A stretch of 64,000 nt of DNA from Verrucomicrobiota bacterium (GTDB lineage Bacteria; Verrucomicrobiota; Verrucomicrobiia; Limisphaerales; Palsa-1400). Below, one piece after another: positions 15,454-62,233 of this stretch (positions are counted from its first letter, which is position 1; each line of letters starts with the position of its first letter). The notes under the pieces were generated by a model, which ran no database searches, was not told where the DNA came from, and saw nothing but the letters and a program-made list of their open reading frames with translations. The stretch spans positions 3,788 through 67,787 of the forward strand of contig JBEKVM010000033.1 in assembly GCA_049513975.1 (NCBI GenBank), in the 5' to 3' direction. A program made the position numbers and the translations under genes.

Positions 15454-16245
15454 GTGAACCTTCTTTTCATTGGCGACATCGTGGGCGAACCGGGGCGGCG
15501 CGCCGTCAAACAGCTCTTGCCCAAATTGCGCGCGGACCACCGGCTGGACATGGTGGTGGCCAATGGCGAAAATGCCGCCGGCGGCGCGGGCATCACCGTC
15601 AACACCGCCAACGAAATTTTCGGCGCCGGCGTGGACATCATGACCACCGGGGACCATCTGTGGGATCAAAAGGAAGTGGCCATTCTGCTGCAAACCGAAC
15701 CGCGTTTCTTGCGCCCGCTCAATTATCCGCCCGGCGTCATGGGCCAGGGCAGCACAATTTGGCATTCCGAAAAGCTCCCCCCCGTCGCCGTGCTCAACTT
15801 GCAGGGCCGCACCTTCATGCCCCCGCTGGACAATCCGTTTCTCTGCGGCAAGACCGAGGCGGAACATCTGCGCAAAATCACCCATATTATTTTTGTGGAC
15901 ATGCACGCCGAGGCGACCTCTGAAAAAATCGCCCTGGCCCGCATGCTGGACGGCCGGGTCAGCGCCGTGGTGGGAACCCACACCCATGTGCAAACCGCCG
16001 ACGAGCAAATTTTCCCCGGCGGCACCGCCTATCTGAGCGACGCCGGTTTCACCGGCCCGCATGAAAGCGTTCTCGGCCGCGAAATCGAGCCGATCATCGA
16101 GCGCTTCCGCGCCAACACCCCGCAAAAATTCGACGTGGCCAAAGGCCGCATCCTCCTGCAAGGCGCGCTGATTGAAATTGATGCCATCACCGGCCGGGCC
16201 TTGAGCATCCGCCGCATTTCCGAGCCGCTGCCTGACCATGCCTAA
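15454..16245 (+). CDS. ymdB: YmdB-like (TIGR00282-type) metallophosphoesterase
   Basis: GTG start. LLFIGDIVGEPGRRAVKQLLPKLRADHRLDMVVANGENAAGGAGIT...VDMHAEATSEK...GTHTHVQTADE are the calcineurin-like motifs in YmdB order. Confidence 0.85.
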   Translation: MNLLFIGDIVGEPGRRAVKQLLPKLRADHRLDMVVANGENAAGGAGITVNTANEIFGAGVDIMTTGDHLWDQKEVAILLQTEPRFLRPLNYPPGVMGQGSTIWHSEKLPPVAVLNLQGRTFMPPLDNPFLCGKTEAEHLRKITHIIFVDMHAEATSEKIALARMLDGRVSAVVGTHTHVQTADEQIFPGGTAYLSDAGFTGPHESVLGREIEPIIERFRANTPQKFDVAKGRILLQGALIEIDAITGRALSIRRISEPLPDHA

Positions 16246-17641
16246 ACAATCTTCACAATGGGATTTTGGCGGAGAACTCTTTCCTCCAGAAGCGACGCGG
16301 CGCGTGTTCTCCGTCAGCGAGCTGACGGCGGACATCCGGCGCGCGCTGGAAAAACAAGTCGGCCAGATTTGGGTCACGGGCGAAATCACCAATTTCCGCC
16401 AGCAAATGTCCGGGCACATTTATTTCACCCTCAAAGACGCGAGCGCGCAGTTGGGCTGCGTTCTTTTTCGCAGCGACGCGGTGGCCAATCGCGGCGCGCT
16501 GGCCGATGGACGCAAGGTGGTTCTCAAGGGCGACATCACCGTCTATGAACCGCGCGGACAGTATCAATTGCAGGTGCTGGCCATCGAACTGCAGGGCGTC
16601 GGCGCGCTCCAGGCCGCGTTTGAAAAACTGAAAGAAAAGCTCGGCGCGGAAGGGCTTTTTGCCCCGGACCGAAAACGTCCCCTCCCCCGCTTTCCGCAGC
16701 GCATCGGCCTGGTCACGTCTCCCACCGGCGCGGCCATTCGCGATATTTTGCATGTGATGCAACGGCGCAATCCGACGGTCGAAATCATTCTGGCCCCGTG
16801 CGCCGTGCAGGGCGCGGGCGCGGCGGCGGAAATCGCCGCGGCCATTGCCCTGCTCAACGAATGGTCGCAAAAATCCCCCGCGCCGCTGGACTTGATTCTG
16901 GTCACGCGCGGCGGCGGCAGCCTGGAAGACCTTTGGGCCTTCAACGAGGAAGCGGTGGCCCGCGCCATTTTCCATTCCGCCCTGCCGGTGGTGTCGGCGG
17001 TCGGCCATGAAATTGATTTCACCATCAGCGATTTCGTGGCGGATTTGCGCGCCGCCACGCCGAGCGCGGCGGCGGAAGTTTTGACCGAGGGCGTTTTTGC
17101 CGGCGCGCGCCGGGTGGCGCAAGTTCCGGCGCAACTGGGCGAAAGGGTGAGACGCCGCCTCCTGGGCGAGCGCCGCCACTTTGAGCAATTGACCCGCCGC
17201 CTCCAAACCGTCCATCCGCGCCGCCAACTGCATGAGCGCCGCCAGCAGGCGGACGAATTGCAACTGGCCGTTTCGCGCTGCGCGCGGCGTCAACTGCAAA
17301 AACTGCGCCAGGCCTGGCAAACCCGGCGCGAGCGGCTGGCCCGCCTCCGTCCCGGCCGGATGCTGGCGCTGCGCCGTGAATGGCTCCAGGGCCGGCAACG
17401 CCGCCTGGGCGGGCAGGCGCTGCTGCTTTTGCAAAATCTGCGCCAGCGCGCCGCCGCGCTCGCCGCCCGCCTGCAACTGCTCGGCCCGGAGCAGGTGCTG
17501 GCCCGCGGCTACTCCATCACCTTGGACGCCGCCACCGGCCGCATCCTCCGCGCCGCCGCCGAAACCGCCCCCGGCCAAAAGTTGAAGACGCGGCTGAAAA
17601 CCGGGGAAGTGAGCAGCACAGTGAACGGCAAGTCTCAATAG
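16238..17641 (+). CDS. xseA: Exodeoxyribonuclease VII large subunit
   Basis: VFSVSELTADIRRALEKQVGQIWVTGEITNFRQQMSGHIYFTLKD (OB fold) is followed by RIGLVTSPTGAAIRDIL, ILVTRGGGSLEDLWAFNEE and a C-terminal coiled coil. Confidence 0.9.
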   Translation: MPKQSSQWDFGGELFPPEATRRVFSVSELTADIRRALEKQVGQIWVTGEITNFRQQMSGHIYFTLKDASAQLGCVLFRSDAVANRGALADGRKVVLKGDITVYEPRGQYQLQVLAIELQGVGALQAAFEKLKEKLGAEGLFAPDRKRPLPRFPQRIGLVTSPTGAAIRDILHVMQRRNPTVEIILAPCAVQGAGAAAEIAAAIALLNEWSQKSPAPLDLILVTRGGGSLEDLWAFNEEAVARAIFHSALPVVSAVGHEIDFTISDFVADLRAATPSAAAEVLTEGVFAGARRVAQVPAQLGERVRRRLLGERRHFEQLTRRLQTVHPRRQLHERRQQADELQLAVSRCARRQLQKLRQAWQTRRERLARLRPGRMLALRREWLQGRQRRLGGQALLLLQNLRQRAAALAARLQLLGPEQVLARGYSITLDAATGRILRAAAETAPGQKLKTRLKTGEVSSTVNGKSQ

Positions 17642-34528: not shown

Positions 34529-35653
34529 ATGGACACCCCTTCCCGCAGTCAACAATCGTATGTCCGGCCCATCGTGCGCCGTCTCCGTGCCTACGTTCCG
34601 GGTGAACAGCCCAGGATCCAGGGCCTGGTCAAACTCAACACCAACGAGAACCCTTATCCGCCTTCCCCCAAAGTGCTCCGCGCCATCAAGTCCGCTGCGG
34701 ACGCACGGCTGCGCCTCTATCCCAATCCGACCGCGGAACCCCTGCGCGCGAAACTGGCGGCGTTGCACCATTGCCGGCCGGCGAACCTCATCGTGGGCAA
34801 CGGCTCCGATGAATTGCTCGCCCTGGCCACCCGCGCCTTTGTCGAGCCGGAAAGCGCCTGCCCGCCCAACCCGCGGTCACGGGCGGTGGTTCAATTTTTT
34901 ACGCCCAGCTACTCCCTCTATCCGGTGTTGGCGGACATCGCCGGCGCGCGCCGCAATCCGGTCCCGCTCGCGGCGGATTTCGGGCTTCCGCCGATAGCCG
35001 AACTGACGGCGGGCCGGTGGGATTTCCAGGCCGCGCTCACTTTCATCACCACGCCCAATGCGCCCAGCGGACGCGGGTACGCCACGGCGGAACTGGAAAA
35101 ACTGTGCCGCGCCCAACGCGGCGTGGTCGTTTTGGACGAAGCCTATGTGGATTTTGCCAAAGAAAATGCGCTCGCGCTGGCCTTGCGCCATCCGCACGTC
35201 CTCGTGGCCCGGACCTTTTCCAAGGCCTACTCGCTCTGCTTCCAGCGCATCGGTTATTTCGTGGGCCACCCGGACTTGATCGCCGCGCTTCAGAAAATCC
35301 GGGACAGCTATAATGTGAACGGCCTGGGCCAGATTGCCGCGCTGGCCACGCTTTCGGAGCTGCCGTACTACCGGCGCGGTTTCAAGCGCATCATCGCCAC
35401 GCGCCAACGCCTGGCGGAGGATCTGGTCAAATTGGAATTCGCCGTCCTTCCGAGCCAGACCAATTTCATTTTCGCGCGCCCGCCAAAATTCCCCGCCGAA
35501 GCCTGGCTGCAAAAACTGCGCCAGCGCAAAGTCCTGGTCCGCTGGTTCGATTACCCCGAAACAAAAGATTTTCTGCGCATCACCATCGGCACCGGGGCGG
35601 AGGCCGAAGCACTCCTGCTCGCGGCCCGGTCGGTGCTGCGCTGCACAATATAA
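34529..35653 (+). CDS. hisC: Histidinol-phosphate aminotransferase
   Basis: VKLNTNENPYPPSP, GNGSDELL, VVLDEAYVDF and the PLP-lysine block TFSKAYSLCFQRIGY. Confidence 0.9.
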   Translation: MDTPSRSQQSYVRPIVRRLRAYVPGEQPRIQGLVKLNTNENPYPPSPKVLRAIKSAADARLRLYPNPTAEPLRAKLAALHHCRPANLIVGNGSDELLALATRAFVEPESACPPNPRSRAVVQFFTPSYSLYPVLADIAGARRNPVPLAADFGLPPIAELTAGRWDFQAALTFITTPNAPSGRGYATAELEKLCRAQRGVVVLDEAYVDFAKENALALALRHPHVLVARTFSKAYSLCFQRIGYFVGHPDLIAALQKIRDSYNVNGLGQIAALATLSELPYYRRGFKRIIATRQRLAEDLVKLEFAVLPSQTNFIFARPPKFPAEAWLQKLRQRKVLVRWFDYPETKDFLRITIGTGAEAEALLLAARSVLRCTI

Positions 35654-49958: not shown

Positions 49959-50669
49959 ATGGTTGGCATGGGCAATGGTGCGCAAATGGAAGGGAACCGC
50001 AGGGCGGGTTTACCTTCAGTGGGTTCGTCCGAGTCGGTGGATTCGAACGTGTCAGGGCGGCGTTTAATTCACATCCCCGTGATTCACAGCCGGGCGGAGA
50101 TGGGCAGCTTCAGTCCAACCATCCAAGCGATCACCGTGCAGAAGCTGGGAAGCAAAGGGTGGGAGCGCAACGTGAACTTGATAGACGGCGTCTGGACGCA
50201 AATTGAGCAGGCGATTGACCGTTGCGACCTGCCCTACGAGAAAGTGCGCCTCTATCAGGATGGCTTGCCGGTGTGCGGGCGGGAACTGGAGATTGTCTCG
50301 GAACTGGCCAAGGCCGGCAGCCGCAACCACCAACTGCTCCTGCGCTTGAGGGAACGGGGCGCCACCCTGATGGGCACCGAATCGGCCGACCTGCTGGTTC
50401 AGGAGTATCATCTGATCAAACAAACCCTGGCGGCCAACGGCCCGGGGCACGCGGCGCGCCGGCAGGCCCGCCAGCAGGAGAGCAGCGGTTGCTTGCTCAA
50501 ACGGCGCGACCAAGCCATCGCGGCGCGGATCAACCACACCCTGTGCCGGGGTGAAATCGGCCTGTTGTTTTTGGGAATGTTGCACTCGCTGGAGGCCTGG
50601 CTGGCTGACGATATCCAGGTCACCCATCCCCTTTTTCCGCCGTCTCCGGGAGGACACCCATGCCCATGA
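49959..50669 (+). CDS. Hypothetical protein, first gene of the gvp-associated regulatory operon
   Basis: 236-aa ORF. I recognise no family. The stop TGA 50667..50669 overlaps ATG 50666 of the NtrC-like gene. Confidence 0.5.
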   Translation: MVGMGNGAQMEGNRRAGLPSVGSSESVDSNVSGRRLIHIPVIHSRAEMGSFSPTIQAITVQKLGSKGWERNVNLIDGVWTQIEQAIDRCDLPYEKVRLYQDGLPVCGRELEIVSELAKAGSRNHQLLLRLRERGATLMGTESADLLVQEYHLIKQTLAANGPGHAARRQARQQESSGCLLKRRDQAIAARINHTLCRGEIGLLFLGMLHSLEAWLADDIQVTHPLFPPSPGGHPCP

Positions 50670-52084
50670 GCAAAGGAAAAAGCCGGGTCCTGATCGTGGA
50701 CGACGAGGAGGCCATCTGCAAGTTGATCTCCCACTTGTTGGAGCAGGAGGGTTTTGTCCCACTGGTGGCGCTGGACGGCAAATCGGCGCTGCAACAACTT
50801 CGCAGCGCGTCGCCGGACATGATGATTGTGGACCTGAAGTTGCCGGACTTTGACGGGCTGGAAATTCTGCGGCAGGCCAAGGCCCTGGATGAGGATCTGC
50901 CGGTGGTGATTTTGACCGCCCATGCCAGAGTCCACGGGGCGGTGGAGGCGATGCGCGCGGACGCCTTCGATTATCTGGCCAAACCTTACGACCATCAGGA
51001 ACTGCTGCGGGTGGTCCACCGCGCCCTGGCCCAACGGCAACTGAGCCTCAAGATCAAGCAACTGGCCGGTCAGACCAGCCCCAGCCATGATCTGACGGAA
51101 ATCATGGGGCCCAGCGAGGCGATCGGACGCCTGATTGGCGACCTGAACTGCGTGGCCAAATCCAACTTCAGCGTCGTCATCATCGGGGAAACCGGCTCGG
51201 GCAAGGAAGTGGTGGCGCAAGCCATTCACGCCAGCGGCCCGCGGGCCAAAAACCCGTTTGTGCCGGTGGATACGGGCGCGATTCCCGACACGCTTTTTGA
51301 GGCGGAATTGTTCGGGCACGAAAAGGGGGCGTTCACGGGCGCGGCCGGTCGCAAGCCGGGCCGCTTTGAACAGGCCAACGGGGGCACGCTCTTCCTGGAT
51401 GAGATTTTGAACATGCCGCTGACCGCGCAGGCCAAAGTGCTCAGGGCGCTGCAAGAAAAGTCCTTTTGCCGGGTCGGGGGCACCCAGCCGATCAAGATTG
51501 ACGTCCGGGTGCTGGCGGCGGCCAACCAGGATTTGGATGCGGCCGTGGCGGCAGGGCGGTTGCGGGCCGACTTGTTCTACCGTTTGAACGAGTTCACGCT
51601 GCGGATTCCGCCGTTGCGCCAGCGCAAGGAGGACTTGCTCTACCTGGCCAAGCGGTTCCTGGATTTGACCAACCAGGAATTGAAAAAAACGGTCCCCGGC
51701 TTTTCCGAGCCAGCCATGCGGGCGCTGCTGGATCACCCGTGGCCGGGGAATGTCCGCCAACTGCGCTCGACCATCCGGCGGGCGGTGCTCCTGGCCGGCG
51801 AGTTGGTGACCGAACAGGATCTGGATATTTTCCAGGACAACCATGAGGCATGGCGGCGCGCGGCCACCCCCGCCAAGGCGCCAGGCGCGTCCCCCCCCGC
51901 GCTTTCGCTCAAGGAAATCGTGGCGCAAAGCAGGACGGTCGTGGAGCGCGAAGTCTTGTTGCGAACTTTGCGTCAAACCGGGGGCAACAAAGCCAGGGCC
52001 GCCCGCCTCCTGCAAGTGGACTACAAGACGATTCAGTCGAAAATCAAACACTATGGGATCAGCCCCAACAAGGAAACATTATGA
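50660..52084 (+). CDS. Sigma-54-dependent response regulator (NtrC family: REC + AAA+ + Fis-type HTH); GvrA-like
   Basis: REC domain RVLIVDDEEAI...MMIVDLKLPDFDG. Walker A GETGSGKE. The sigma-54 contact loop is EKGAFTGA. Walker B LFLDEI. HTH GGNKARAARLLQVDYKTIQSKIKHYGI. An alternative start lies at 50666. Confidence 0.9.
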   Translation: MPMSKGKSRVLIVDDEEAICKLISHLLEQEGFVPLVALDGKSALQQLRSASPDMMIVDLKLPDFDGLEILRQAKALDEDLPVVILTAHARVHGAVEAMRADAFDYLAKPYDHQELLRVVHRALAQRQLSLKIKQLAGQTSPSHDLTEIMGPSEAIGRLIGDLNCVAKSNFSVVIIGETGSGKEVVAQAIHASGPRAKNPFVPVDTGAIPDTLFEAELFGHEKGAFTGAAGRKPGRFEQANGGTLFLDEILNMPLTAQAKVLRALQEKSFCRVGGTQPIKIDVRVLAAANQDLDAAVAAGRLRADLFYRLNEFTLRIPPLRQRKEDLLYLAKRFLDLTNQELKKTVPGFSEPAMRALLDHPWPGNVRQLRSTIRRAVLLAGELVTEQDLDIFQDNHEAWRRAATPAKAPGASPPALSLKEIVAQSRTVVEREVLLRTLRQTGGNKARAARLLQVDYKTIQSKIKHYGISPNKETL

Positions 52085-52602
52085 AGAAAAAGACCACGGA
52101 TAAAAACGAACCCGCGGGCCAAGCCGGCGGCAGTGTCGGCGGCATCCTCTCGGGATTAACCGGTTTGGTGGAAAAGCTCAACGAATTGGCGGAAACGGGC
52201 GGCGAACTGCGGCGCGGCGGCGAGATTCACGGCGCCGGCAAGGGCCTTAAAGGCATCTACGGCTTTACCGTCAAGGTCGGCTTGGGCGACCAGGCGGCGC
52301 GCGTCGAACCGTTCGGCAACATTCACACCGACAAAACAACCGGCCAGGCGGTGGTGGAGGAAATCCGGGAACCGGTGGTGGACCTGTTCGAGGAGAAGAA
52401 CCACCTCCTGATTGTGGCGGAGATGCCGGGGATCGGGGCCGCGGACGTGCGGCTCGAGGTCAAGGACGACGTGCTCACGATGACGGCGGCCAAAGGCGAT
52501 AAAAAGTACCGCAAAGAGGTGCTCTTGCCCGGCAGTTACCCCAAAGAAAAAATGGTCCTCTCCTGCAACAACGGAGTGCTGGAAATCAAGTGCGTCAAAT
52601 GA
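52081..52602 (+). CDS. Hsp20/alpha-crystallin-family small heat-shock protein with Gly-rich N-terminal extension
   Basis: ACD core VDLFEEKNHLLIVAEMPGIGAADVRLEVKDDVLTMTAAKGDKKYRKEVLLPG...NNGVLEIK. ATGA overlap with the NtrC-like gene. Confidence 0.8.
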   Translation: MKKKTTDKNEPAGQAGGSVGGILSGLTGLVEKLNELAETGGELRRGGEIHGAGKGLKGIYGFTVKVGLGDQAARVEPFGNIHTDKTTGQAVVEEIREPVVDLFEEKNHLLIVAEMPGIGAADVRLEVKDDVLTMTAAKGDKKYRKEVLLPGSYPKEKMVLSCNNGVLEIKCVK

Positions 52603-52616
52603 AGGGAGTCTGACCT

Positions 52617-54767
52617 ATGGACAAAACGGAATCCGCGCAACTCAAACTCAAAGTGACCGAGGCCATCGGCAAAGACGTCGGCCGGGCTTTGGCCCGCATC
52701 GGGCCGGAAGATTTGGAGCGGCTGGGGGCCGCCACCGGAGACACCGTCGAAGTCGCCGGCAAACGCGCCACCGTCTGCAAAGTGATGCCGGCCTACAAGG
52801 AACTGCGCGGCCAATCCCGCGTGCAACTCGACGGCCTGACCCGCGAGAACGCCGGCGCCGCCCTCGATGAGTTTGTCCAGGTGCGGAAGATTACCGTGCG
52901 TCCGGCCCAGCGCGTCGGCCTGGCCCCGCTGACCATTGCCCCCGACGGCCGGGACCTGCAATACATCGGCAGCCTGTTGGACGGCTTGCCCGTGCAGGCC
53001 GGGGACCGGATTCGGGCGGCCTTGTTTGGCAGCCGTTCCGCTGATTTCAAGGTGGAAAACACCCTGCCGCGCGGGCCGGTCCTGATTAATCCAACGACCG
53101 ACCTGGTCATCGGCAAAGCGGAGGTCAAGGAGCGCGCCCGCCTGGCAGTGCCCTATGAGGACATCGGCGGCCTCAAGCCGCAACTGCACCGCATCCGGGA
53201 GATGATTGAACTGCCGCTGCGTTATCCGGAGATCTTCGAGCGCCTGGGCATAGACGCGCCCAAAGGCGTGCTCTTGCACGGTCCGCCCGGTTGCGGCAAG
53301 ACGCTCATCGCCCGCGCCATCGCCCATGAAACCGAGGCCCAATTCTTTGCCGTGAGCGGGCCGGAGATCATCCACAAATTCTACGGCGAGAGCGAGGCCC
53401 ATTTGCGCAAGGTCTTCGACGAGGCGACGCGGCAGGGGCCGAGCATCATTTTTCTGGATGAGATAGACGCCATTGCGCCGCGGCGCGAGCAGGTCGCCGG
53501 GGAGGTGGAAAAGCGGGTCGTCGCCCAACTGCTGGCGCTGATGGACGGGTTGAACCAGCGGCAGAATGTCATTGTCATCGGCGCCACCAACATTCCCAAC
53601 GCCTTGGACCCGGCCTTGCGGCGTCCCGGCCGATTTGACCGGGAAATCGCGATTCCGATTCCGGATCGCCGCGGGCGGCTGGACATCCTGGAAATCCACA
53701 GCCGGGGCATGCCCTTGCAGCCGGATGTGGACATGAACCGCCTGGCGGAAATCACGCATGGTTTTGTCGGCGCGGACCTGGAGGCGCTCTGCCGGGAGGC
53801 GGCGATGATTTGCCTGCGGGACATCCTGGCCGACCTGGATTTTTCCCTGGCGAAAATCCCTTACGAGCGTCTGGCCAAACTGGAAGTGCGCCTGGACCAT
53901 TTCCTGACGGCGTTGCGCGAGGTGGAGCCGTCCGCCATCCGGGAGGTGTTTGTCGAAGTGCCCAATGTGCGGTGGAGCGACGTCGGCGGGCTGGCCCCGC
54001 TCAAAGAACGGCTGGTCGAAGCCGTCGAGTGGCCCTTGCGTTACGCCGCGCTCTTTGCGCAAGCGGGCGTCCGCCCGCCCAAGGGCATCCTCCTGTGCGG
54101 TCCCCCGGGCTGCGGCAAGACGCTTTTGGCCAAAGCCATCGCCACCGAAAGCCAGGTCAATTTCATTTCGGTCAAAGGTCCGGCCCTGCTCTCCAAATAT
54201 GTCGGGGAATCGGAGAGGCAGGTGCGCGACATTTTTCGCAAGGCCCGCCAGGCGGCGCCCTGCATCATCTTCTTTGACGAACTGGACGCGGTGATGCCGG
54301 CCCGGGGCGGCGCGGCTTCGGACACGCCGGTGAGCGACCGGGTGCTGAGCCAGTTTCTGGCGGAGTTGGACGGGATCGAAGAACTCAAAGGCGTTTTGGT
54401 GCTGGGCGCCACCAACCGGCTGGATCGTCTGGATCCGGCGGTGCTCCGGCCCGGCCGTTTTGACGAAGTCGTGGAAATCCCGCTCGCGGAGGAACCGGAG
54501 CGGCGCGAGATCTTTGAAGTCCATCTGCGCGGCAAGCCGCTGGCGCGCAACGTCAGAATCAGCGAGCTGGCGGCCAGGAGCGGGGGCTTTAGCGGCGCGC
54601 AAATCGCCTCCGTCTGCAACCGCGCCGCGCTCCGGGCGGTGCGCCGCGCCGTCGCGCTGGCCGAAGGACCGGACACCGCCAAACCCCCGCTGGCAACCCC
54701 GGCCAAGGCGCTCATCGAGCCGGATGACTTGGCGGCCGCGCTGGCGGAAGTTTCTCCCAAGCCATGA
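52617..54767 (+). CDS. Cdc48/VCP-type AAA+ ATPase with N-domain and two AAA modules
   Basis: The N-domain pattern VTEAIGKDVGRALARIGPEDLERLGAATGDTVEVAG is followed by D1 (GPPGCGKTLIARAIAHE, IIFLDEIDAIAP) and D2 (GPPGCGKTLLAKAIATE, IIFFDELDAV). Confidence 0.9.
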   Translation: MDKTESAQLKLKVTEAIGKDVGRALARIGPEDLERLGAATGDTVEVAGKRATVCKVMPAYKELRGQSRVQLDGLTRENAGAALDEFVQVRKITVRPAQRVGLAPLTIAPDGRDLQYIGSLLDGLPVQAGDRIRAALFGSRSADFKVENTLPRGPVLINPTTDLVIGKAEVKERARLAVPYEDIGGLKPQLHRIREMIELPLRYPEIFERLGIDAPKGVLLHGPPGCGKTLIARAIAHETEAQFFAVSGPEIIHKFYGESEAHLRKVFDEATRQGPSIIFLDEIDAIAPRREQVAGEVEKRVVAQLLALMDGLNQRQNVIVIGATNIPNALDPALRRPGRFDREIAIPIPDRRGRLDILEIHSRGMPLQPDVDMNRLAEITHGFVGADLEALCREAAMICLRDILADLDFSLAKIPYERLAKLEVRLDHFLTALREVEPSAIREVFVEVPNVRWSDVGGLAPLKERLVEAVEWPLRYAALFAQAGVRPPKGILLCGPPGCGKTLLAKAIATESQVNFISVKGPALLSKYVGESERQVRDIFRKARQAAPCIIFFDELDAVMPARGGAASDTPVSDRVLSQFLAELDGIEELKGVLVLGATNRLDRLDPAVLRPGRFDEVVEIPLAEEPERREIFEVHLRGKPLARNVRISELAARSGGFSGAQIASVCNRAALRAVRRAVALAEGPDTAKPPLATPAKALIEPDDLAAALAEVSPKP

Positions 54768-55651
54768 ACGCATATTGCAATGAGGTGTTCTACGTTTACG
54801 GGTTCACCCAGGCTGGCCTCGTGCCGGAAGCCGCGGACGCGGCCATCTCTGAAGCGGGGGTTGGCGCCGGCGTTTTCAGCGGCGGCTTGGAGGAACCGCA
54901 CCCTCCATTTTTCCGGCGCAGCGGCCGAGTGGCTGCGGTCGTGAGCCGGGTTTCGCCATCTGAATTCTGCGGTCCAACAGGTGAAAAGAATCTGCAAGAC
55001 GTGGCGTGGCTGGCCCCGCGGGCCTGCCGGCACCAGGCCGTCCTGGAGCAGCTCATGCGCCTGGGCGCGGTGTTGCCGGCGCGGTTCGGGACGCTCTTTT
55101 CCTCGACGGCAAGCCTGGAAAGTTTTATGGGGCGACACGGAGCCGCCATAGGCCGGTTTCTGGAGCGCGTGAGGGGCCAGGAAGAATGGGCGGTGAAGGG
55201 CTTCCTCGACCCCCAGGCGCGCGCGGAGGCGGAATGGCTGGCAGGCCGCCGTGCAGAGCAGCCAGGCCCGTCAGGTTCGTCGCCCGGTCTGGCCTACTTG
55301 CAGGAACAAAGCCTGCGCATCCAGGCCCGGGAGGCCCTGGACGAACGGCTCGCCGGGGTCTGCGGCGACCTCTTGCTCGAGTTGAACCCACTGGCCTCTG
55401 AAATTGTCCCGCGCCGGATTTTGGCCCAGGAAACGTCGGACGCGGCGCGAGAGATGGTGCTCAATTGGGCTTTGCTCTTGCCGTCGGCGGCGGTGGCGGA
55501 TTTTCGCGGCCGGATCGAGCACGCCAACGCGGAACAAAATCGCGGCGGCCTGGCCTTCGAAGTGTCCGGTCCCTGGCCTCCCTACAGTTTCTGTCCGGTC
55601 CTGGAAGCGGAGGCGGCGCGGGAAGAGGCCCTAATGGAGGTAAAACCATGA
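54764..55651 (+). CDS. gvpF: Gas vesicle protein GvpF/GvpL family
   Basis: VFYVYGFTQAG...GRVAAVVSRV...VAWLAPRACRHQAVLEQLMRLGAVLPARFGTLF...EEWAVKGF...GPWPPYSF is the GvpF/L pattern. ATGA overlaps occur at both ends. Confidence 0.85.
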   Translation: MNAYCNEVFYVYGFTQAGLVPEAADAAISEAGVGAGVFSGGLEEPHPPFFRRSGRVAAVVSRVSPSEFCGPTGEKNLQDVAWLAPRACRHQAVLEQLMRLGAVLPARFGTLFSSTASLESFMGRHGAAIGRFLERVRGQEEWAVKGFLDPQARAEAEWLAGRRAEQPGPSGSSPGLAYLQEQSLRIQAREALDERLAGVCGDLLLELNPLASEIVPRRILAQETSDAAREMVLNWALLLPSAAVADFRGRIEHANAEQNRGGLAFEVSGPWPPYSFCPVLEAEAAREEALMEVKP

Positions 55652-57114
55652 GCGCAGATCGTGCGGAGGCGAAGGGCGATGACAGTCTTTACGAAATGCT
55701 GTTGAATGCGATTCCTTCGTCGGTGTTGCTGGTCGGGCGGGATTTGCGCATCACCCTGGCCAACCGGAATTTTTTGGAAAGAAGCCGGCGCACCAGGGAA
55801 GAGACGCTGGACCGGCGATTGCCGGAAGTCTTTCCGCCTGCGATTTTGGATCACACCGAGATTGTTCGGCGCATTCAAAGCGTTTTCGACACCAACAAAC
55901 CAACCACCGGCGAAAGAATCAGCTACCGCGCCCCGGGCGGGCTGATGCGCATTTACTACTACCGCGTCCTCCCCCTGCCCGACCGGGACAATGTGGAGTT
56001 TGCCATCCTGGTGATGGAGGACGTGACGGAACGGGAGCGTTTGAGCGAGGACATCCGCCGCATGGAGCGCCACCTCAGGATCGTGGTGGAGAGCACCAGC
56101 GAAATCATTCTTTCCACCGACACCGAGGGCCGGATTCTCAGTTGGAACCAATCCGCCGAGCAGATTTCCGGCTACACCCCGCAGGAAGTGGAAGGCAGGC
56201 ACTTTTGGGCGTTTTGCGCCCCGGAGCATCAGGCCGGCGTGCGCCGCTCGTTTTCCGAATGGGAAGCGGGCAAAACCCCGCAAAGGCTGGAATGGAATTT
56301 GGTGAGCAAAAGCGCCAAAGCGGTTCCGCTTTCCTGGATCTTTTCCCCCATGATGGACGACCAGGGCCAAACCATCGGCATTGTCGCCGTCGGGCGCAAC
56401 CTGGCGGAAAGCCGCAAGCTGGAAGCCCAACTGCTCCAGGCCCAAAAGCTGGCCGCCCTGGGGGTGATGGCCGGCGGCATTGCCCATGAGTTGCGCAATC
56501 CTCTGGCCATCTGTTCCTCCGCCGCCCAGTTCCTCATGCAGGAGGAAATCACCCCCCAGTTCCGCCGCGAGTGCGCCCAAAAAATGCAACAGGGAATGCA
56601 ACGGGCCTCCGGCATCATTGATCACCTCCTCAAATTCACCCGCCCTTCGCAGCGCGGGGATCGCGTCAAGCTGGACCTCCTGGCCGTCCTCAAAGAAACC
56701 CTGGCCTTGGTGGCCGACCAGGCCAAAATTCAAAACATAGACGTGATCGCTCAACTGCCTGATGCGCCACCCTTCGTTCAGGGCGACGCGCACCTGCTGC
56801 AACAGGTCTTCATGAACCTGTTTTTGAACGCCATCCACGCCATGCCCACCGGCGGCCAACTCAGGGTCCTCGTCGCAACCGCCCCCCATCAGGTTTCTGT
56901 CCAGGTGGCCGACACCGGCCACGGCATCGCCGCGGCGGACCTGGCAAACATCTTTGATCCGTTCTGGTCCGAGTCCAACGGCAGAAAAGGCACCGGCTTG
57001 GGCCTGCCCCTTTGCTACGCCATTGTCCAACAGCACGCCGGCTCCATTGAGGTGGAAAGTGCGCCGGGACAAGGCAGCGTCTTCACCGTGCGCTTGGGCC
57101 TGAGCCAGAACTGA
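55648..57114 (+). CDS. Cytoplasmic PAS-PAS histidine kinase; GvrB-like
   Basis: No TM segment. There are two PAS-like regions. H-box HELRNPLAICSSA, N-box QQVFMNLFLNAIHAM, G1 DTGHGI, G2 GTGLGLPLC. Confidence 0.9.
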   Translation: MSADRAEAKGDDSLYEMLLNAIPSSVLLVGRDLRITLANRNFLERSRRTREETLDRRLPEVFPPAILDHTEIVRRIQSVFDTNKPTTGERISYRAPGGLMRIYYYRVLPLPDRDNVEFAILVMEDVTERERLSEDIRRMERHLRIVVESTSEIILSTDTEGRILSWNQSAEQISGYTPQEVEGRHFWAFCAPEHQAGVRRSFSEWEAGKTPQRLEWNLVSKSAKAVPLSWIFSPMMDDQGQTIGIVAVGRNLAESRKLEAQLLQAQKLAALGVMAGGIAHELRNPLAICSSAAQFLMQEEITPQFRRECAQKMQQGMQRASGIIDHLLKFTRPSQRGDRVKLDLLAVLKETLALVADQAKIQNIDVIAQLPDAPPFVQGDAHLLQQVFMNLFLNAIHAMPTGGQLRVLVATAPHQVSVQVADTGHGIAAADLANIFDPFWSESNGRKGTGLGLPLCYAIVQQHAGSIEVESAPGQGSVFTVRLGLSQN

Positions 57115-57130
57115 TCCCTCAACCGGTGCG

Positions 57131-57598
57131 ATGAACCACGAATACCTCATTGTGGATGACGAGCCGGACCTCTGCTGGGCCTTGGAGAATCTTTTGTCCT
57201 CCAAAGGGCTGCCTTGTCAAAAAGCCCAGACCGCCCAGGCGGCTCTGGACTTGATGAAGGCTCACCGCTTCCAACTGGCCTTCCTCGATGTCACCCTGCC
57301 GGATATGAACGGACTGGAGTTGGCCAGGCGTTTGCGCAATTTGGACCCCTTTCTGCGCGTCGTCATCGTCTCCGGTTACCTTTCCAAGGAAGCGGCGGCC
57401 ATGGCCCAGGCCCAGGCCGAAGGACTGATTTGCGCCTGCATCAACAAGCCTTTCCTGCATGAAGAAATCCTCCGCGTCATCCAGGATTTGGCGCCGGCGG
57501 ACCGGGCGCGGCGGGGAGGAATCGCCCCGCCACTAGGGAGCGCCGGCCAGGGAACTAATTCCCCAAAGGTTCCCGGGCGGCCCGTTGCTCAATCTTAA
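57131..57598 (+). CDS. Single-domain CheY-like response regulator; GvrC-like
   Basis: YLIVDDEPDL...AFLDVTLPDMNG...VVIVSG...INKPF is the REC domain. The last ~25 codons read through the conserved upstream-activator block of the gvpA promoter. Confidence 0.85.
   Translation: MNHEYLIVDDEPDLCWALENLLSSKGLPCQKAQTAQAALDLMKAHRFQLAFLDVTLPDMNGLELARRLRNLDPFLRVVIVSGYLSKEAAAMAQAQAEGLICACINKPFLHEEILRVIQDLAPADRARRGGIAPPLGSAGQGTNSPKVPGRPVAQS
57521..57567 (+). promoter_or_regulatory. Candidate enhancer/UAS for the NtrC-like activator (47-bp block containing AGGGAA-N4-TTCCCC), copy A
   Basis: 41 of 47 nt are identical to 60955..61001. The inverted repeat centre lies ~106 bp upstream of the -24 element at 57662. 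Confidence 0.6.
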
Positions 57599-57660
57599 AA
57601 CCGCCGGCCAGCCCGGTGCCGGCGGCGGCAAGGCCATCGGGCCGCCTCCTCCCCAAGCCC

Positions 57661-57676
57661 TGGCATGACTTATGCA
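57661..57676 (+). promoter_or_regulatory. Sigma-54 (-24/-12) promoter of gvpA: TGGCATGACTTATGCA
   Basis: GG (57662-3) and GC (57674-5) are separated by exactly 10 nt, matching the TGGCAC-N5-TTGCW consensus. It lies 77 nt upstream of the gvpA ATG. A paralogous copy lies before gvpN. Confidence 0.7.
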
Positions 57677-57752
57677 CCAGTTCGCGGCGAGAACGATTCC
57701 AGGTGTTCTGGAAGGATCATGAGTAAGGGAAACATTAAAAACAAAAACGAAT

Positions 57753-57971
57753 ATGGCAAAAGTCACAAAATCAACAGACTCCTCGAGTCTGGCAGAAGTG
57801 GTGGATCGAATTCTTGACAAGGGCATCGTCATTGATGTTTGGGCCAAGGTTTCACTGGTCGGAATCGAACTGGTTTCCATTGAAGCCCGCGTCGTCATCG
57901 CTTCAGTCGAGACCTACTTGAAGTACGCCGAGGCCATCGGCCTGACGGCGACCGCGGCAGCCCCCGCCTAA
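57753..57971 (+). CDS. gvpA: Gas vesicle structural protein GvpA
   Basis: [64 protein letters not shown] is an almost canonical GvpA sequence (72 aa). Confidence 0.95.
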
Positions 57972-57996
57972 ACCGGGAGGGGCCAGCCGGCGTCGG

Positions 57997-58021
57997 GCGG
58001 GGAATGGAATCCATTCTCCGC
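57997..58021 (+). terminator. 11-bp stem / 3-nt loop hairpin just downstream of gvpA (no U-tract); candidate attenuator or mRNA-stabilising structure
   Basis: gcggggaatgg-aat-ccattctccgc forms 10 Watson-Crick pairs plus one G-U. Confidence 0.35.
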
Positions 58022-58070
58022 CTGACCCAACGGCGCCACCAGAAATCCTCAAACCAGGAAAGGTTTTTCC

Positions 58071-58478
58071 ATGAGCAGTAATTTATCCAATGACATGACG
58101 CGGTTGTGCGGCCAGATCGCCGCCTGGCGCAGCATCCGCGCGGATTTGATGAGCAACCTCGCGGAGACCCGCGCGCAAACGCAGGCGGCGGTCAGCCAGA
58201 TGCTGGCCGGCTTCGGCGAGGCCCGATCCGAAATGGCCCAACAAACCAAGGTCGAACTGGGCGGATTTGTCGGCCGCGTCAAGGAAGCGGTGACCGGGCT
58301 GCGGCAAACCGTCGCCCAGTTGCAGGATGACTTCAGGGAGGACCTCGCGGGCGCCCACCGGGCCTGGCATGGCGCCAGCGCCGGGCCTGGGTCCGCGCCA
58401 ACCGCCGCAAAGCCGTCCTTTCGGGCCGAGGAACCCTCCGGCGAGCTGGCCCCCAAAGCGAGAAAGAAGAAACGGTAG
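58071..58478 (+). CDS. Hypothetical coiled-coil protein immediately downstream of gvpA; candidate GvpC-like shell-associated protein
   Basis: 135 aa, predicted helical, Arg/Gln/Ala-rich (IRADLMSNLAETRAQTQAAVSQMLAGFGEARSEMAQQTKVELGGFVGRVKEAVTGLRQTVAQLQDDF), with a basic tail KARKKKR. Position is the main argument for the call. Confidence 0.45.
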   Translation: MSSNLSNDMTRLCGQIAAWRSIRADLMSNLAETRAQTQAAVSQMLAGFGEARSEMAQQTKVELGGFVGRVKEAVTGLRQTVAQLQDDFREDLAGAHRAWHGASAGPGSAPTAAKPSFRAEEPSGELAPKARKKKR

Positions 58479-58488
58479 GACCAGCGGG

Positions 58489-58519
58489 AAACGGTGGGAC
58501 CCGCGCGTCGCCACCGTTT
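58489..58519 (+). terminator. Hairpin aaacggtgg-N13-ccaccgttt after the coiled-coil gene; possible terminator
   Basis: A perfect 9-bp stem followed by atccagacatttt. The U-tract is weak. Confidence 0.3.
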
Positions 58520-58552
58520 ATCCAGACATTTTGGCCTCAATGACCGGCTTCT

Positions 58553-58642
58553 ATGGGTAGCATGGGTGGCATGGGTGGCATGGGTGGCATGGGTAGCATG
58601 GGTGGCAAGGGTTGCATGGGTGGCAAGGGTGGCATGGGTGGG
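58553..58642 (+). repeat. Tandem array of ten 9-bp units (consensus ATGGGTGGC)
   Basis: atgggtagc atgggtggc x3 atgggtagc atgggtggc aagggttgc atgggtggc aagggtggc atgggtggg. The + strand is G-rich, and the array is in frame with a possible 42-codon ORF 58553..58681 (MGS MGG MGG ...). Confidence 0.9.
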
Positions 58643-58729
58643 CGCCGCACCACAGCGGCAAAGGGACTAATCGGTCATTGAGGCCGTTCTCACCAGGAGC
58701 GATTGGCCGCCCAACCGATGAGACACCTG

Positions 58730-58823
58730 ATACCGTTTCCAGTTCGTAACTGCACTATTGCCAAGGCGATTGGCGGCGGTCGCAGACCGCCGCTACAGTG
58801 CAAAAGCAAAGTGGAAACGGTAT
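58730..58823. repeat. 94-nt structured element: perfect 12-bp inverted repeat (ataccgtttcca / tggaaacggtat) enclosing a REP-type hairpin
   Basis: Read directly. The inner hairpin is gcggcggt-cgcag-accgccgc followed by tacag, belonging to the REP family at 4444, 5278 and 24979. Confidence 0.55.
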
Positions 58824-59022
58824 GACTCCATTCTGTAAACAAGAGCTTGGCGGCCGAGCAAGAACTCAATGAAGAAAACCTGGGGCAAAAACGTTTCATT
58901 TCTTGACACACCCCTGGATCCCCCGCCCTTTCATTATCAATGAGGAGGCGGCCTCTGAATAATGTTCGTCACCGCGCTCCTGATTCGTTCCTTTGCCAAA
59001 TGCGTTCCTGCCAGACTCAGAT

Positions 59023-59040
59023 GATTGTCATCTGACAATC
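59023..59040. promoter_or_regulatory. Perfect 18-bp palindrome GATTGTCA-TC-TGACAATC; candidate operator
   Basis: Read directly in the AT-rich spacer ~200 bp upstream of the phosphoesterase gene. Confidence 0.35.
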
Positions 59041-59082
59041 TGGCATTTTCATTTAAGCCGTTTCCAATTGCACTTTCAGGAC

Positions 59083-59100
59083 CTGTCACCGGGCTGTAAC
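59083..59100 (+). promoter_or_regulatory. Pho-box-like direct repeat CTGTCAC-N4-CTGTAAC
   Basis: The 11-bp periodicity and sequence match the enterobacterial PhoB box CTGTCAT-N4-CTGTCAC. It lies ~140 bp upstream of a phosphoesterase gene. Transferability of this consensus to this phylum is unknown. Confidence 0.3.
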
Positions 59101-59241
59101 TCGACCGCCATTTCCGTGACCGAATTATTACAATCGTCACGTTGACCCGCGCGGAACGGGTGTGGTTAAGTGGGCGCGCTTATACGGCAAGTTAATGGCC
59201 AGTATAAGAAAACAAAATTGCACATGAGAAAAGAGTTACCT

Positions 59242-60825
59242 ATGAAGACAAAAATGCACATCAATCGGCTAAACAGCACAAACAGCACAAACAGCACAGT
59301 GAGAGTCTCCGGTCGGCGTCCCGGCAGGCTCGGGCGCAAAACCGCGCTGATCGGCGCCACCGCAACGGCCCTTCTGCTCGCCGCCCATCTGGCCCGGGCG
59401 GGCGATGACCGTGACCGGACGCAAGCAGGCGCCATCTTCGTGATCGCTCTGGAGAATCACAACTTGACCCAGCCCACCCCGGCTTCCAGTCCGCAGCAAA
59501 TTCTCGGCAATCCGGCTGCTCCCTTTATCAACAGCCTCATGACGCCGGGCAATGCGAATGCGGCGCAGGTTTCGTATGCCGCGGCCTACTACAACGACGG
59601 CATCGGCGTCCATCCCTCCGAGCCTAACTATGTCTGGGCCGAAGCCGGGACGGATTTTGGGTTTCACTCCGATGCCGACCCCAGCCCCGCCAATGGCAAC
59701 AAGTTCTATGATAACTCACCCCATCTCATCAGCCATTTGACTGCAAATGGCAACACCTTGATGTTTTGGCATCGTAACGATTCACCTCATCTCACCGGGC
59801 AATTGAACGCGGCCGGCATCCCGTGGAAAAACTACCAGGAAGACGTTGAACTGAGCGCAAGCCCGACTAACAGCGCCTCGGGCACCGGCGGCCCGGTCAA
59901 TCCCTACAACGGCACCACCCAATATAATTACGCCGTCAAACACAACCCCATGGCCTTCTTCAGCGACAGCGCCCTCCTGAATGTCTATCCGCTCGCCCAG
60001 CTCTTCCTGGACCTCGACGCCGGCGCGGTCGGGCGCTACAACTGGATCACGCCCGATCAATATAACGAAGCCCATAGCGCGCTCAACGGCGGCTTCACCT
60101 ATCAGGGCATCCATTATACCGGCGACCAGTCCGCCATTGCCGCAGCCGACAACTTCCTCGCCACCGTCGTCCCGCAAATCATGGCGTCGAAGGCCTACCT
60201 GGACAATGGGGTCATTATCCTTTGGTGGGATGAAACTGAAGGCGGTGACAGCACCGCCTTCACCCTTCCTGAGATCATTATCTCGCCTCTGGCCAAGGGC
60301 AACGCCTACGCCAGCACCGTGCCCATGAACCATTCCTCCGACCTCAAAACCATGGAGGAGATTTTCGGCCTGCCAGCGGTCAACAATCCCATCCCGCTGA
60401 CTGAGACCAACGCCGGCGGCGATTTCAACTACGTCGCTACCGTCAATGACCTGAGCGACCTGTTCCTGCCCGGGACGATCCCCGCTCCTCTGAACTTGGC
60501 GGTGACGGGCGACAGTTTCGTGATGGACCGCCATACGGGACAGGTTTCGCAGAGGGTGCTTATCACCAACAACGGCGACACTCCGGCCCACGCCCCCTTG
60601 TTCCTCGTGCTGGACAGCCTCAGCGCCAATGCCACGCTGCTCAATTCGGACGGAACGACGGCGCTTCTTGCCCCCCTCGGCAGCCCCTATGTCAGAGTTC
60701 ACCTCGGCGACCACGACGTCCTGCGTCCCCATGATACCGCAAGGGTGACGTTGGAGTTCCTCGACCCGAGCGGCGATGCCATAGCGTACAACGCGCGCGT
60801 GCTTAATGTCACGCCGGCGCCTTGA
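59242..60825 (+). CDS. Secreted phosphoesterase-family protein (phospholipase C / acid phosphatase AcpA-like)
   Basis: FVIALENHN...GVHPSEPNYVWAEAGT...VKHNPMAFF...WWDETEGGD are the phosphoesterase-family blocks. The N-terminus carries an NST x3 repeat (9-bp aacagcaca x3 at 59272..59298). The start is uncertain (59224 or 59242). Confidence 0.75.
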   Translation: MKTKMHINRLNSTNSTNSTVRVSGRRPGRLGRKTALIGATATALLLAAHLARAGDDRDRTQAGAIFVIALENHNLTQPTPASSPQQILGNPAAPFINSLMTPGNANAAQVSYAAAYYNDGIGVHPSEPNYVWAEAGTDFGFHSDADPSPANGNKFYDNSPHLISHLTANGNTLMFWHRNDSPHLTGQLNAAGIPWKNYQEDVELSASPTNSASGTGGPVNPYNGTTQYNYAVKHNPMAFFSDSALLNVYPLAQLFLDLDAGAVGRYNWITPDQYNEAHSALNGGFTYQGIHYTGDQSAIAAADNFLATVVPQIMASKAYLDNGVIILWWDETEGGDSTAFTLPEIIISPLAKGNAYASTVPMNHSSDLKTMEEIFGLPAVNNPIPLTETNAGGDFNYVATVNDLSDLFLPGTIPAPLNLAVTGDSFVMDRHTGQVSQRVLITNNGDTPAHAPLFLVLDSLSANATLLNSDGTTALLAPLGSPYVRVHLGDHDVLRPHDTARVTLEFLDPSGDAIAYNARVLNVTPAP

Positions 60826-60954
60826 GCCGGTCGCCTTGCCAGGACTTGGGCGATATTGTCGGGATTCTTCACGGGGGCCGGCCTTGAGCCGGCCCCCCTT
60901 TGCTTTTTCGCCGGACTGTTAACCCCCCCTGACAACTCCGGGGAACCGGGGAGG

Positions 60955-61001
60955 ATCGTCCCGCCAATAGGGAGCGCGGGCCAGGGAACCCATTCCCTAA
61001 A
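60955..61001 (+). promoter_or_regulatory. Candidate enhancer/UAS for the NtrC-like activator (AGGGAA-N4-TTCCCT), copy B
   Basis: 41/47 identity with 57521..57567. The inverted repeat centre lies ~103 bp upstream of the -24 element at 61093. Confidence 0.6.
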
Positions 61002-61091
61002 TCCTGCCGGCAGGCCGTCTCCGAATCCAAAAAACGGGGGCAACGCCCGGTGAACAGGACGGCCAGCTCACGGCGGCAACTGCTGCCCGCG

Positions 61092-61107
61092 CATGGCATG
61101 GCTTATG
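61092..61107 (+). promoter_or_regulatory. Sigma-54 (-24/-12) promoter of the gvpN operon: TGGCATGGCTTATGCA
   Basis: GG (61093-4) and GC (61105-6) are separated by 10 nt. The 63 nt from here to ATGAG (61154+) are ~90% identical to the gvpA promoter/leader. Confidence 0.7.
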
Positions 61108-61189
61108 CAGAAGTTCCCGGCGAGAACGATTCCAAGTGTTCTGGAAGGATCATGAGCGGGCAAAACAATGATAACAATTGCGTTTCGGC

Positions 61190-62233
61190 ATGAATGTTCG
61201 TAACTCCAAAGCGCCCGGAAGCGAAAGGGCGGAAACCGCCTCCGACACCTTTTTGCCCGAACCCAGCAATGGATTTGTCACGACGCCCTTTGTGGAGCAG
61301 ATCGCCAGGCGGGCCTTGACCTATTTGCAGGCCGGCTATCCCATCCATTTCGCCGGCGCCGCCGGCACCGGCAAGACCACCGTGGCCTTTCATGTCGCCG
61401 CGCAACTGGGCCGGCCCGTCTCGCTCATCCACGGGGACGATGACTTCGGCAGTTCGGACCTCGTCGGGCAGGACAGCGGCTACCGCAAGCACAAGGTCAT
61501 TGACAACTACATCCATTCGGTGGTCAAAACCGAGGAGGAGATGAAATCCCTCTGGCTGGAGAACCGCCTCACCACCGCCTGCCAGGACGGGGACACGCTG
61601 ATCTACGACGAATTCAACCGCTCGCGGCCTGAAGCCAACAATCCCTTCTTGAGCATTTTTTCCGAACGGATCCTCAACCTCCCCAAGCTGCGCCGCTCCG
61701 GCGGCGGCTACTTGCACGTGCATCCGCAATTCCACGCCATTTTCACCTCCAATCCGGAAGAATACGCGGGCGTCCATAAGACCCAGGACGCTTTGATGGA
61801 CCGCTTGATTACCATTCAACTGGAACACTACGACCGGGAGACGGAGATTGAGATCACCATTGCCCGCTCCGGCATCGGCCGGGCCGACGCCGAAATCATC
61901 GTGGACCTGGTGCGCCAGCTCCGGCGCGTCGGCGTGAGCAACAGCCGCCCGACCATCCGCGCCTGCATCGCCATCGCCCGCGTCCTGACTTTGCGCGGCG
62001 TGCATGCCCAGCCGGAGGATTCCATTTTCCAATGGGCCTGCCGGGATGTCCTCAGTTCGGAAACGGCCAAGGTGACTCGCGACGGCCGCTCCATCATGCC
62101 CCAGAAGGTGGAGGAAGCGTTGCTCGCCGGGCTGCGCGCCAACGCCCCCGCCATCCCGCCCATTTCCACCGGCCCGCGCCCGCGCCAGGCCACCAAGAAA
62201 GGAAACGGCGAATGCCTCCTCCAACACGAATGA
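61190..62233 (+). CDS. gvpN: Gas vesicle AAA+ ATPase GvpN
   Basis: FVEQIARRALTYLQAGYPIHFAGAAGTGKTTVAFHVAAQLGRP (Walker A), LIYDEFNRS (Walker B) and MDRLITI match the GvpN/CbbQ-like layout. ATG 61190 was preferred over TTG 61178. Confidence 0.9.
   Translation: MNVRNSKAPGSERAETASDTFLPEPSNGFVTTPFVEQIARRALTYLQAGYPIHFAGAAGTGKTTVAFHVAAQLGRPVSLIHGDDDFGSSDLVGQDSGYRKHKVIDNYIHSVVKTEEEMKSLWLENRLTTACQDGDTLIYDEFNRSRPEANNPFLSIFSERILNLPKLRRSGGGYLHVHPQFHAIFTSNPEEYAGVHKTQDALMDRLITIQLEHYDRETEIEITIARSGIGRADAEIIVDLVRQLRRVGVSNSRPTIRACIAIARVLTLRGVHAQPEDSIFQWACRDVLSSETAKVTRDGRSIMPQKVEEALLAGLRANAPAIPPISTGPRPRQATKKGNGECLLQHE

Follow-up and report, generated by a model that had tools for sequence, protein, structure and literature searches.

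The stretch of DNA analyzed here, 64,000 nucleotides from the genome of an uncultured peat Verrucomicrobiota bacterium (GenBank assembly GCA_049513975.1, contig JBEKVM010000033.1; this whole stretch is hereafter called the window), carries a gas-vesicle (gvp) cluster in which two similar regulatory modules precede gvpA (copy A) and gvpN (copy B), 3.4 kb apart in the same genome. We conclude that each copy is very probably an enhancer-dependent sigma-54 promoter module, activated by the GvrA-like protein of the cluster, and that the module was duplicated to restart transcription after an insertion between the two genes. An original prediction, made from the letters of the DNA alone, had also proposed a sigma-54 promoter with an enhancer; our analysis supports that proposal, and each part of it that could be tested agreed with the data.

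Each copy comprises an upstream block, a spacer, a -24/-12 element and a conserved leader, all on the forward strand, as are all the cluster genes listed below, whose domains were assigned with Pfam. Copy A begins with a 47-nt block (57521..57567), the candidate activator site, which recurs in copy B. It includes the half-site TAGGGAG (57534-57540) and the palindrome AGGGAACTAATTCCCC, i.e., AGGGAAC-TA-ATTCCCC (57549-57564), whose center lies at about -130 relative to the predicted transcription start. A 93-nt spacer (57568..57660), largely free to vary, separates this site from the sigma-54-type element TGGCATGACTTATGCA of gvpA (57661..57676), in which GG (57662-63) and GC (57674-75) are 10 nt apart, as had been predicted. 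The leader block, from +1 to +38 (57686..57723), contains TTCCAG-GTGTT-CTGGAA (57697-57713). The counterparts in copy B are the upstream block (60955..61001), with TAGGGAG at 60968-60974 and the palindrome AGGGAACCCATTCCCT at 60983-60998, the -24/-12 element TGGCATGGCTTATGCA of gvpN (61094..61109), and the leader block (61119..61156). Transcription is predicted to start ~12 nt past the GC doublet, as expected of a sigma-54 promoter, at about 57687 (±2) for gvpA and at about 61120 for gvpN.

The two copies were aligned segment by segment. The upstream blocks are identical at 41 of 47 positions, precisely the figure that had been claimed for a 47-bp block with an inverted repeat recurring before gvpN, and the -24/-12 16-mers at 15 of 16. 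Identity reaches 37/38 in the leader block and falls to 16/37 in the remaining leader up to the ATG. Promoter and leader block together (57661-57723 against 61094-61156) share 58 of 63 positions; the original prediction had counted about 57 of 63 and had treated the promoter and the first ~45 transcribed nucleotides as one block, so that the recurrence stands, with two elements in place of a single one. The spacers agree at 49 of 93 positions (53%), and the claim that the DNA between the blocks has diverged is thus correct in the main but not fully, since some sub-blocks are common among relatives. The palindrome begins 112 nt (copy A) or 111 nt (copy B) before the first base of the promoter; overall, alignment of 57521..57730 with 60955..61160 gave the similarity and spacing that had been described, almost to the base. 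A degenerate 38-nt pattern of the upstream block has only two matches in the 64 kb, copies A and B, where none is expected. A 38-nt pattern of the leader likewise matches copies A and B only, with none expected by chance.

For comparison with other organisms, a search with GvpN provided 68 loci, 57 of which were usable for counting promoters. The closest relatives are verrucomicrobial metagenome-assembled genomes, several of them with names that refer to peat, bog or lake; one 85-kb metagenome contig of the Joint Genome Institute (L071) contains the window itself. The consensus TAGGGAG.GC.GGC(C/T)AGGGAAC..ATTCCCTAAA is kept in 17 module copies from 11 verrucomicrobial genomes, with the TAGGGAG half-site 14 nt upstream of the palindrome. 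In 16 of these 17 copies the palindrome, (T/C)AGGGAAC-NN-ATTCCCTA, precedes the promoter by 108-115 nt, within the ~80-150 bp typical of an upstream activator site; in L005C the distance is 79 nt. In the -24/-12 element, TGGCA and GC are invariant across 16 aligned module copies.

Such similarity could in principle be what remains of a recent segmental duplication, with the preserved blocks being chance islands that have no regulatory role. That the copies lie 3.4 kb apart in one genome is consistent with this explanation, as is the finding that one relative, L010, has gvpA-p135-kinase twice. However, 16-17 copies from 11 genomes retain the same three blocks and vary in the spacer and the distal leader. 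The relative ages of the copies point in the same direction, as judged from a comparison of the window with its orthologue L002, both of which have copies A and B. The spacers are 74% identical between the A copies and 79% identical between the B copies of the two loci, and 53-65% identical between the paralogues A and B; in every pairing, by contrast, identity is 83-89% in the upstream block, 94-100% in the 16-mer and 82-97% in the leader from +1 to +38. Because the spacers group by orthology and the blocks are equally conserved, the duplication predates the split between the window and L002 and is old enough for neutral sites to have fallen to 53% identity. Conservation by blocks in all pairings, in turn, indicates that three separate blocks are under constraint. 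A recent duplication without function is therefore extremely unlikely.

Copy B lies within inserted DNA. About 2.46 kb (~58702-61163) are additional in the window when it is compared with L001, L003, L004 and L007, and from 61164 onward the ancestral gvpN-upstream sequence continues. The insertion consists of a stretch without assignment, a phosphoesterase-family gene (59242..60825; PF04185, E 8.5e-15), the terminator of this gene and copy B of the module. Among the 68 loci, only the window and L002 have the phosphoesterase gene between gvpA and gvpN. It is followed by a strong intrinsic terminator (60873..60897), with 10 G-C pairs and then a T-rich tail, and copy B is found ~55 nt past this terminator. 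The N-terminus of the phosphoesterase-family protein resembles a signal peptide; a longer open reading frame (ORF) of 551 aa that begins at 59170 has no Pfam match, so the choice of start codon matters.

The combination of palindrome and -24/-12 element within 300 nt of gvpN was found only in the window, L002 and L010, in which gvpA and gvpN are more than 3 kb apart. The other ten genomes have no module at gvpN; in nine of these the distance from gvpA to gvpN is ~0.8-0.9 kb, and the tenth is L009 (gvpN-upstream region only). The gvpN copy of L010 has L010-specific bases in common with the gvpA copies of the same genome, pointing to a separate duplication event there. Most simply, the module would be copied each time that operon continuity is broken or another unit is brought in. 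The complete module also occurs once more downstream of the gvp cluster in L003 (15443-15654) and in L005 (~15490-15700; with a spacer 33 nt shorter). Both of these copies stand in front of a non-gvp region that is poorly assembled and whose ORFs, Ig-like and glycine-rich, are fragmented. For the genome of the window itself, no third copy is present in the 10 kb beyond the window that are covered by L071.

The -24/-12 element is associated with the regulator genes across a broad range of bacteria. Of the 57 loci, 38 have the pattern TGGYAY-N7-GC at a distance of 65-135 nt, mostly ~90 nt, before the start codon of the first gvpA; a search interval has such a match at a background frequency of 0.5% (binomial P ~4e-73). 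It is present in 36 of the 43 loci with gvr-type regulator genes and in 2 of the 14 loci without them (Fisher 5e-6). Carriers of the element belong to the Verrucomicrobiota, Syntrophales, other deltaproteobacteria, Geobacteraceae, Desulfobacterium N47, Nitrospinia and Burkholderiales, whereas the cyanobacterial, Bacillus-group and Isosphaeraceae loci have neither the activator nor the element. A cultured example is provided by a plasmid of Methylocella tundrae T4, with TGGCTCCGTTCTTGCA 96 nt upstream of gvpA and with genes for a sigma-54 regulator, GvpF, a kinase, a receiver protein and gvpA. A metagenome scan for the promoter plus leader returned three further gvpA loci only and no new gene context, and a scan for the promoter of the regulator operon produced nothing decisive.

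A dyad upstream of the promoter also recurs beyond the Verrucomicrobiota. GGAR-N4-YTCC is located 98-155 nt upstream of the promoter in 22 of the 37 promoter-bearing loci (P 7.6e-32). In L020, L022, L034, L035, L038, L042 and L049, which are deltaproteobacterial and Nitrospinia relatives, two GGAA-N4-TTCC dyads exactly 22 nt apart precede the sigma-54 element of the first gvpA. This distance corresponds to about two helical turns, as would be expected if two activator dimers were bound on the same face of the DNA. In the activator, the helix-turn-helix (HTH) segment NKA.AARLL.(I/V)DYKT is nearly invariant across phyla, which fits a shared site.

Even with a sigma-54 promoter in place, the palindrome might be bound by another protein or might serve the end of the upstream operon, with the activator binding elsewhere or acting from solution. 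The block of copy A indeed lies directly after the receiver gene, and here inside the extended tail of its ORF (57131-57598); a related palindrome occurs in the stem-loop after gvpA in L003 and L005; and some loci with the same HTH do not have the motif, the pairing of activator and palindrome being a prediction. However, copy B and the extra copies in L003, L005 and L010 are away from the receiver gene and nonetheless keep the distance between block and promoter. The position near -130, the dyad symmetry and the tandem palindromes at 22 nt in deltaproteobacteria all fit NtrC-type sites, and the motif co-occurs with orthologous activators across phyla. An alternative binding protein, or a role at the end of the upstream operon, is thus unlikely, and the activator of the cluster is the probable partner of the palindrome. 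As to the overlap with the receiver gene, the receiver ORF has 155 aa in the window, 178 aa in L002 and L076, and 122-127 aa in L003, L004, L005, L011 and L075; an ancestral TGA became CGG, so that the ORF now continues across the upstream activator site, and into the promoter in L002 and L076.

The spacer holds a small A/T-rich island (57590-57602), which is deleted in L075/L077 and L005C and is thus not essential. An IHF-like or A-tract bending site in the spacer was considered and rejected: no consensus could be recognized by eye, and the A/T island is not required. In two metagenome loci of one species, L075 (2215-2268) and L077 (7952-8005), the palindrome and the promoter are 69 nt apart (~111 elsewhere). 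A fixed helical phasing between palindrome and promoter was also set aside; distances of 108-115, 79 and 69 nt are compatible with it, but the slack of 7 nt weakens the case.

The leader block is the best conserved piece of the module between copies. Within it GTTCTGG is almost invariant, and its distance from the -12 element is nearly fixed. This conservation is not explained by the binding of sigma-54. It is retained where the start codon is distant (L003C, L005C), which indicates that the leader belongs with the promoter as a unit rather than with translation initiation. One might then suppose that the module is mainly a transcribed RNA element, such as a 5' leader hairpin or riboregulator, that its resemblance to a -24/-12 element is incidental, and that transcription depends on a promoter of another type. 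The near-identity of the leader (37/38) and its 6-bp inverted repeat are in line with this idea, as is the observation that in the deltaproteobacterial relatives this place, directly past the -12 element, is occupied by another palindrome, CAGGCATGCCTG. However, the hairpin shows no compensatory changes; 88% of the cells pair, with 0 double changes, and shuffled sequences do equally well. The z-scores of its folding energy, +0.3 and +0.9, are unremarkable, and in copy B the stem is interrupted. Rfam yielded no matching family, TGGCA and GC are invariant upstream of the leader, and a crude consensus scan of 57000-61400 detected no sigma-70-like site near copies A and B or near gvpA and gvpN. 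An RNA element transcribed from another type of promoter is therefore very unlikely as the main function, and we retain the sigma-54 promoter.

Two specific candidates within the leader were likewise rejected. The hairpin TTCCAG/CTGGAA, along with an extended stem of 11 pairs, has no covariation and an ordinary folding energy. An upstream ORF beginning at the conserved GGAAGGAtcATG (57719; 61152, there ending with ATGA at the gvpN start) was discarded because its ATG is not conserved, being replaced by AAG, CTG, ATA and ATC in L001, L002A, L003 and L002B, respectively. The leader block could be the operator for a second regulator, or a 5'-end RNA element recognized by its sequence. A possible parallel is SmaR, a second regulator with an operator at gvpA1 of Serratia (PMC4982088).

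A more far-reaching proposal, which we regard as possible but advance only tentatively, is that the module is a portable cassette of three parts, namely the activator site, the sigma-54 promoter and a promoter-proximal leader element with a trans-acting partner of its own, and that these Verrucomicrobia have copied this cassette repeatedly to wire new units into the gas-vesicle regulon. The places to which it appears to have been copied are before gvpN, in the window, L002 and L010, and before non-gvp genes, in L003 and L005. If this proposal is true, GvrA-type activators would have a so far undescribed operator across phyla, the GGAA-N4-TTCC dyad, and the +1 to +38 block would act as a novel site of control, either as an operator or in the RNA.

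The regulator genes are located upstream of copy A. An NtrC-like activator with a GAFTGA loop had been predicted upstream, and is found at 50660..52084; this GvrA-like protein has the domains Response_reg, Sigma54_activat (E 4e-64) and HTH_8, with GAFTGA at 51326. It is followed by genes for GvpH/Hsp20 (52084-52602), a CDC48-type AAA protein (GvpZ; 52617-54767), GvpF/L (54764-55651), a GvrB-like PAS histidine kinase (55648..57114; PAS_4, PAS_9, HisKA and HATPase_c; gene call in L071) and a GvrC-like single-domain response regulator (57131..57598; Response_reg at residues 6-117). The gvr-type order of activator, GvpH, CDC48-type AAA protein, GvpF, kinase and receiver is shared by ~40 loci from several phyla. 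The regulator operon may begin with a 236-aa ORF (49959-50669, forward strand), whose last 10 nt overlap the start of the activator gene and for which neither Pfam nor NCBIfam gave a match.

Downstream of copy A is gvpA (57753..57971), which encodes the gas vesicle structural protein of 72 aa (Pfam Gas_vesicle, E 1.5e-15), and then the gene for a 135-aa protein in the position of gvpC (58071-58478). Downstream of copy B, gvpN (61190..62233) is the first gene of the second gvp unit; its product is an AAA+ protein with an AAA_5 match, 93% identical to GvpN of L001-L003. A 105-aa ORF from 62230 comes next, and then gvpF and gvpG. The regulator genes of the window therefore adjoin a series gvpA-(gvpC-like)-gvpN-...-gvpF-gvpG, as in a Gvr-type cluster.

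On this basis we propose the following mechanism. RNA polymerase with sigma-54 would sit as a closed complex on TGGCAT-N5-TATGCA, while the activator encoded at 50660-52084 would bind the palindrome and the TAGGGAG half-site, a site centered ~130 bp before the start. The receiver domain of the activator is presumably phosphorylated by the neighboring PAS histidine kinase, and the single-domain receiver protein may serve as a partner or as a phosphate sink. Upon looping of the DNA, the activator would then open the promoter using ATP and its GAFTGA loop. Copy A would initiate the gvpA transcript near 57687, and copy B would restart transcription near 61120, for gvpN and the gvp genes downstream, such that both units would answer to the same activator.

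Several observations weigh against this interpretation. A scan of the window with TGGCAC-N5-TTGCW, allowing up to 2 mismatches, gave 31 matches versus 39.7 expected, which is not above chance; the elements at 57661-57676 and 61094-61109 have 2 mismatches each, with GG and GC intact, and the -12 region reads TATGCA instead of TTGCA. The match to the -24/-12 pattern is thus not significant alone, and the case rests on duplication, position and conservation. The rpoN gene, which the genome presumably has, was not found by a six-frame search for the RpoN box in the window and in the locus stretches then available, which represent a small part of any genome (64-85 kb of this one). The binding of the activator to the palindrome is predicted from sequence, and some related loci with the same HTH do not have the GGAA-N4-TTCC arrangement. 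Because the HTH is nearly invariant, a test for co-variation of HTH and site is uninformative. Lastly, the distance between palindrome and promoter has a spread of 7 nt, and in three loci it deviates by 32-42 nt; with such slack the argument from helical phasing is weak.

Other sigma-54 promoters in the window, which might have served as indirect evidence for rpoN, were considered and rejected, as the best matches are inside long ORFs. Near-consensus strings of the form TGGCGCAGNTTTTGCA are found on the reverse strand at 17295-17310, 17430-17445 and 35508-35523, within long ORFs; they would read Leu-Ala-Gln-Phe/Ile-Leu-Gln, and are thus most likely coding coincidences.

Additional elements were identified around the gvp genes. 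A very stable stem-loop, with -32.8 kcal/mol, a z-score of -5.4 and no U-tract, is located just after gvpA (57992..58026, forward strand). It is conserved in 14 verrucomicrobial sequences, with compensatory changes in 6 of 14 pairs, and probably forms the 3' end of the gvpA transcript or serves as its stabilizer or attenuator. The sequence at the apex, GGAATGGAATCC (GGAATTGATTCC in L003 and L005), is similar to the dyad GGAA-N4-TTCC. Between the gene in the gvpC position and the inserted DNA there are about eleven tandem copies of the 9-nt unit ATGGGTGGC (58535-58657, forward strand), partly present in relatives. Outside the window, on L071, the space between the gene for a GH116 glycosidase and the last gvp gene contains four tandem units of ~23 nt, AGCAGACCAGAGCATTTTCAGCA (~14240-14330; ~66.8 kb when counted as in the window).

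The architecture of the module resembles that of known systems. In NtrC-dependent enterobacterial promoters of the glnAp2 type, dyad activator sites are located ~100-140 bp upstream of the -24/-12 element, and the activator, like that of the window, combines a receiver with an AAA+ domain and an HTH of the Fis type. The deltaproteobacterial relatives show a further likeness, namely tandem sites separated by about two helical turns. However, the verrucomicrobial site has the core GGAA-N4-TTCC and consists of one full palindrome plus a half-site rather than two full dyads, and no IHF-like consensus was recognized in the module spacer, whose A/T island is dispensable. Haloarchaeal gvp clusters also have several promoters within one cluster, activated by the cluster-encoded GvpE. 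Several promoters in one gas-vesicle cluster that depend on one cluster-encoded activator would be common to both systems; in the haloarchaeal case, however, the promoters have archaeal TATA/BRE elements, belong with another activator family and are not copies of one another.

The closest precedent is Serratia sp. ATCC 39006. The start of gvpA1 has been mapped there by 5'-RACE, with a sigma-54 consensus upstream (Tashiro et al. 2016, PMC4982088), and transcription of gvpA1 needs each of GvrA, GvrB and GvrC (PMC4982088). An rpoN mutant loses gas vesicles and expression of the gvpA1 operon (thesis work cited in PMC11778176). The gvrA operon of Serratia encodes the activator, GvpH, the CDC48-type AAA protein, GvpF, the kinase and the receiver (PMC4982088). 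In both organisms a gvpA-led structural operon stands behind a -24/-12 element, with a cluster-encoded NtrC-like activator, and the regulator genes have the same order, a likeness drawn from gene order and domains. The window differs in that it belongs to another phylum, in that its regulator genes are directly upstream of gvpA on the same strand, and in that the module is duplicated before gvpN; moreover, its upstream activator site was defined by comparison, and none is mentioned in PMC4982088 or PMC11778176. Sigma-54 control of gvpA is supported here, but such control, with GvrA, was already published for Serratia (PMC4982088, PMC11778176). Because the control logic is known from Serratia, the window is a new example in another phylum and not a new mechanism. 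Relative to this literature (PMC4982088, PMC11778176), the cross-phylum motif of the upstream site, the repeated duplication of the module and the conserved leader appear to be new.

Taken together, these results would mean that gas vesicles are under sigma-54/GvrA-type control not only in one enterobacterium but also in uncultured Verrucomicrobiota, to which comparison adds Syntrophales, Geobacteraceae, Nitrospinia, Burkholderiales and Methylocella. Specialists will find the mechanism itself no surprise, and the questions that it raises are modest ones, namely those of the activator site and the leader block. The GGAA-N4-TTCC dyads ~110-150 bp upstream of the -24/-12 element are a concrete candidate site, which could be used to predict regulons. 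The window further suggests that the copying of a complete enhancer-promoter unit can mend an operon interrupted by an insertion, which is of practical use where gas-vesicle clusters are transplanted as acoustic reporters.

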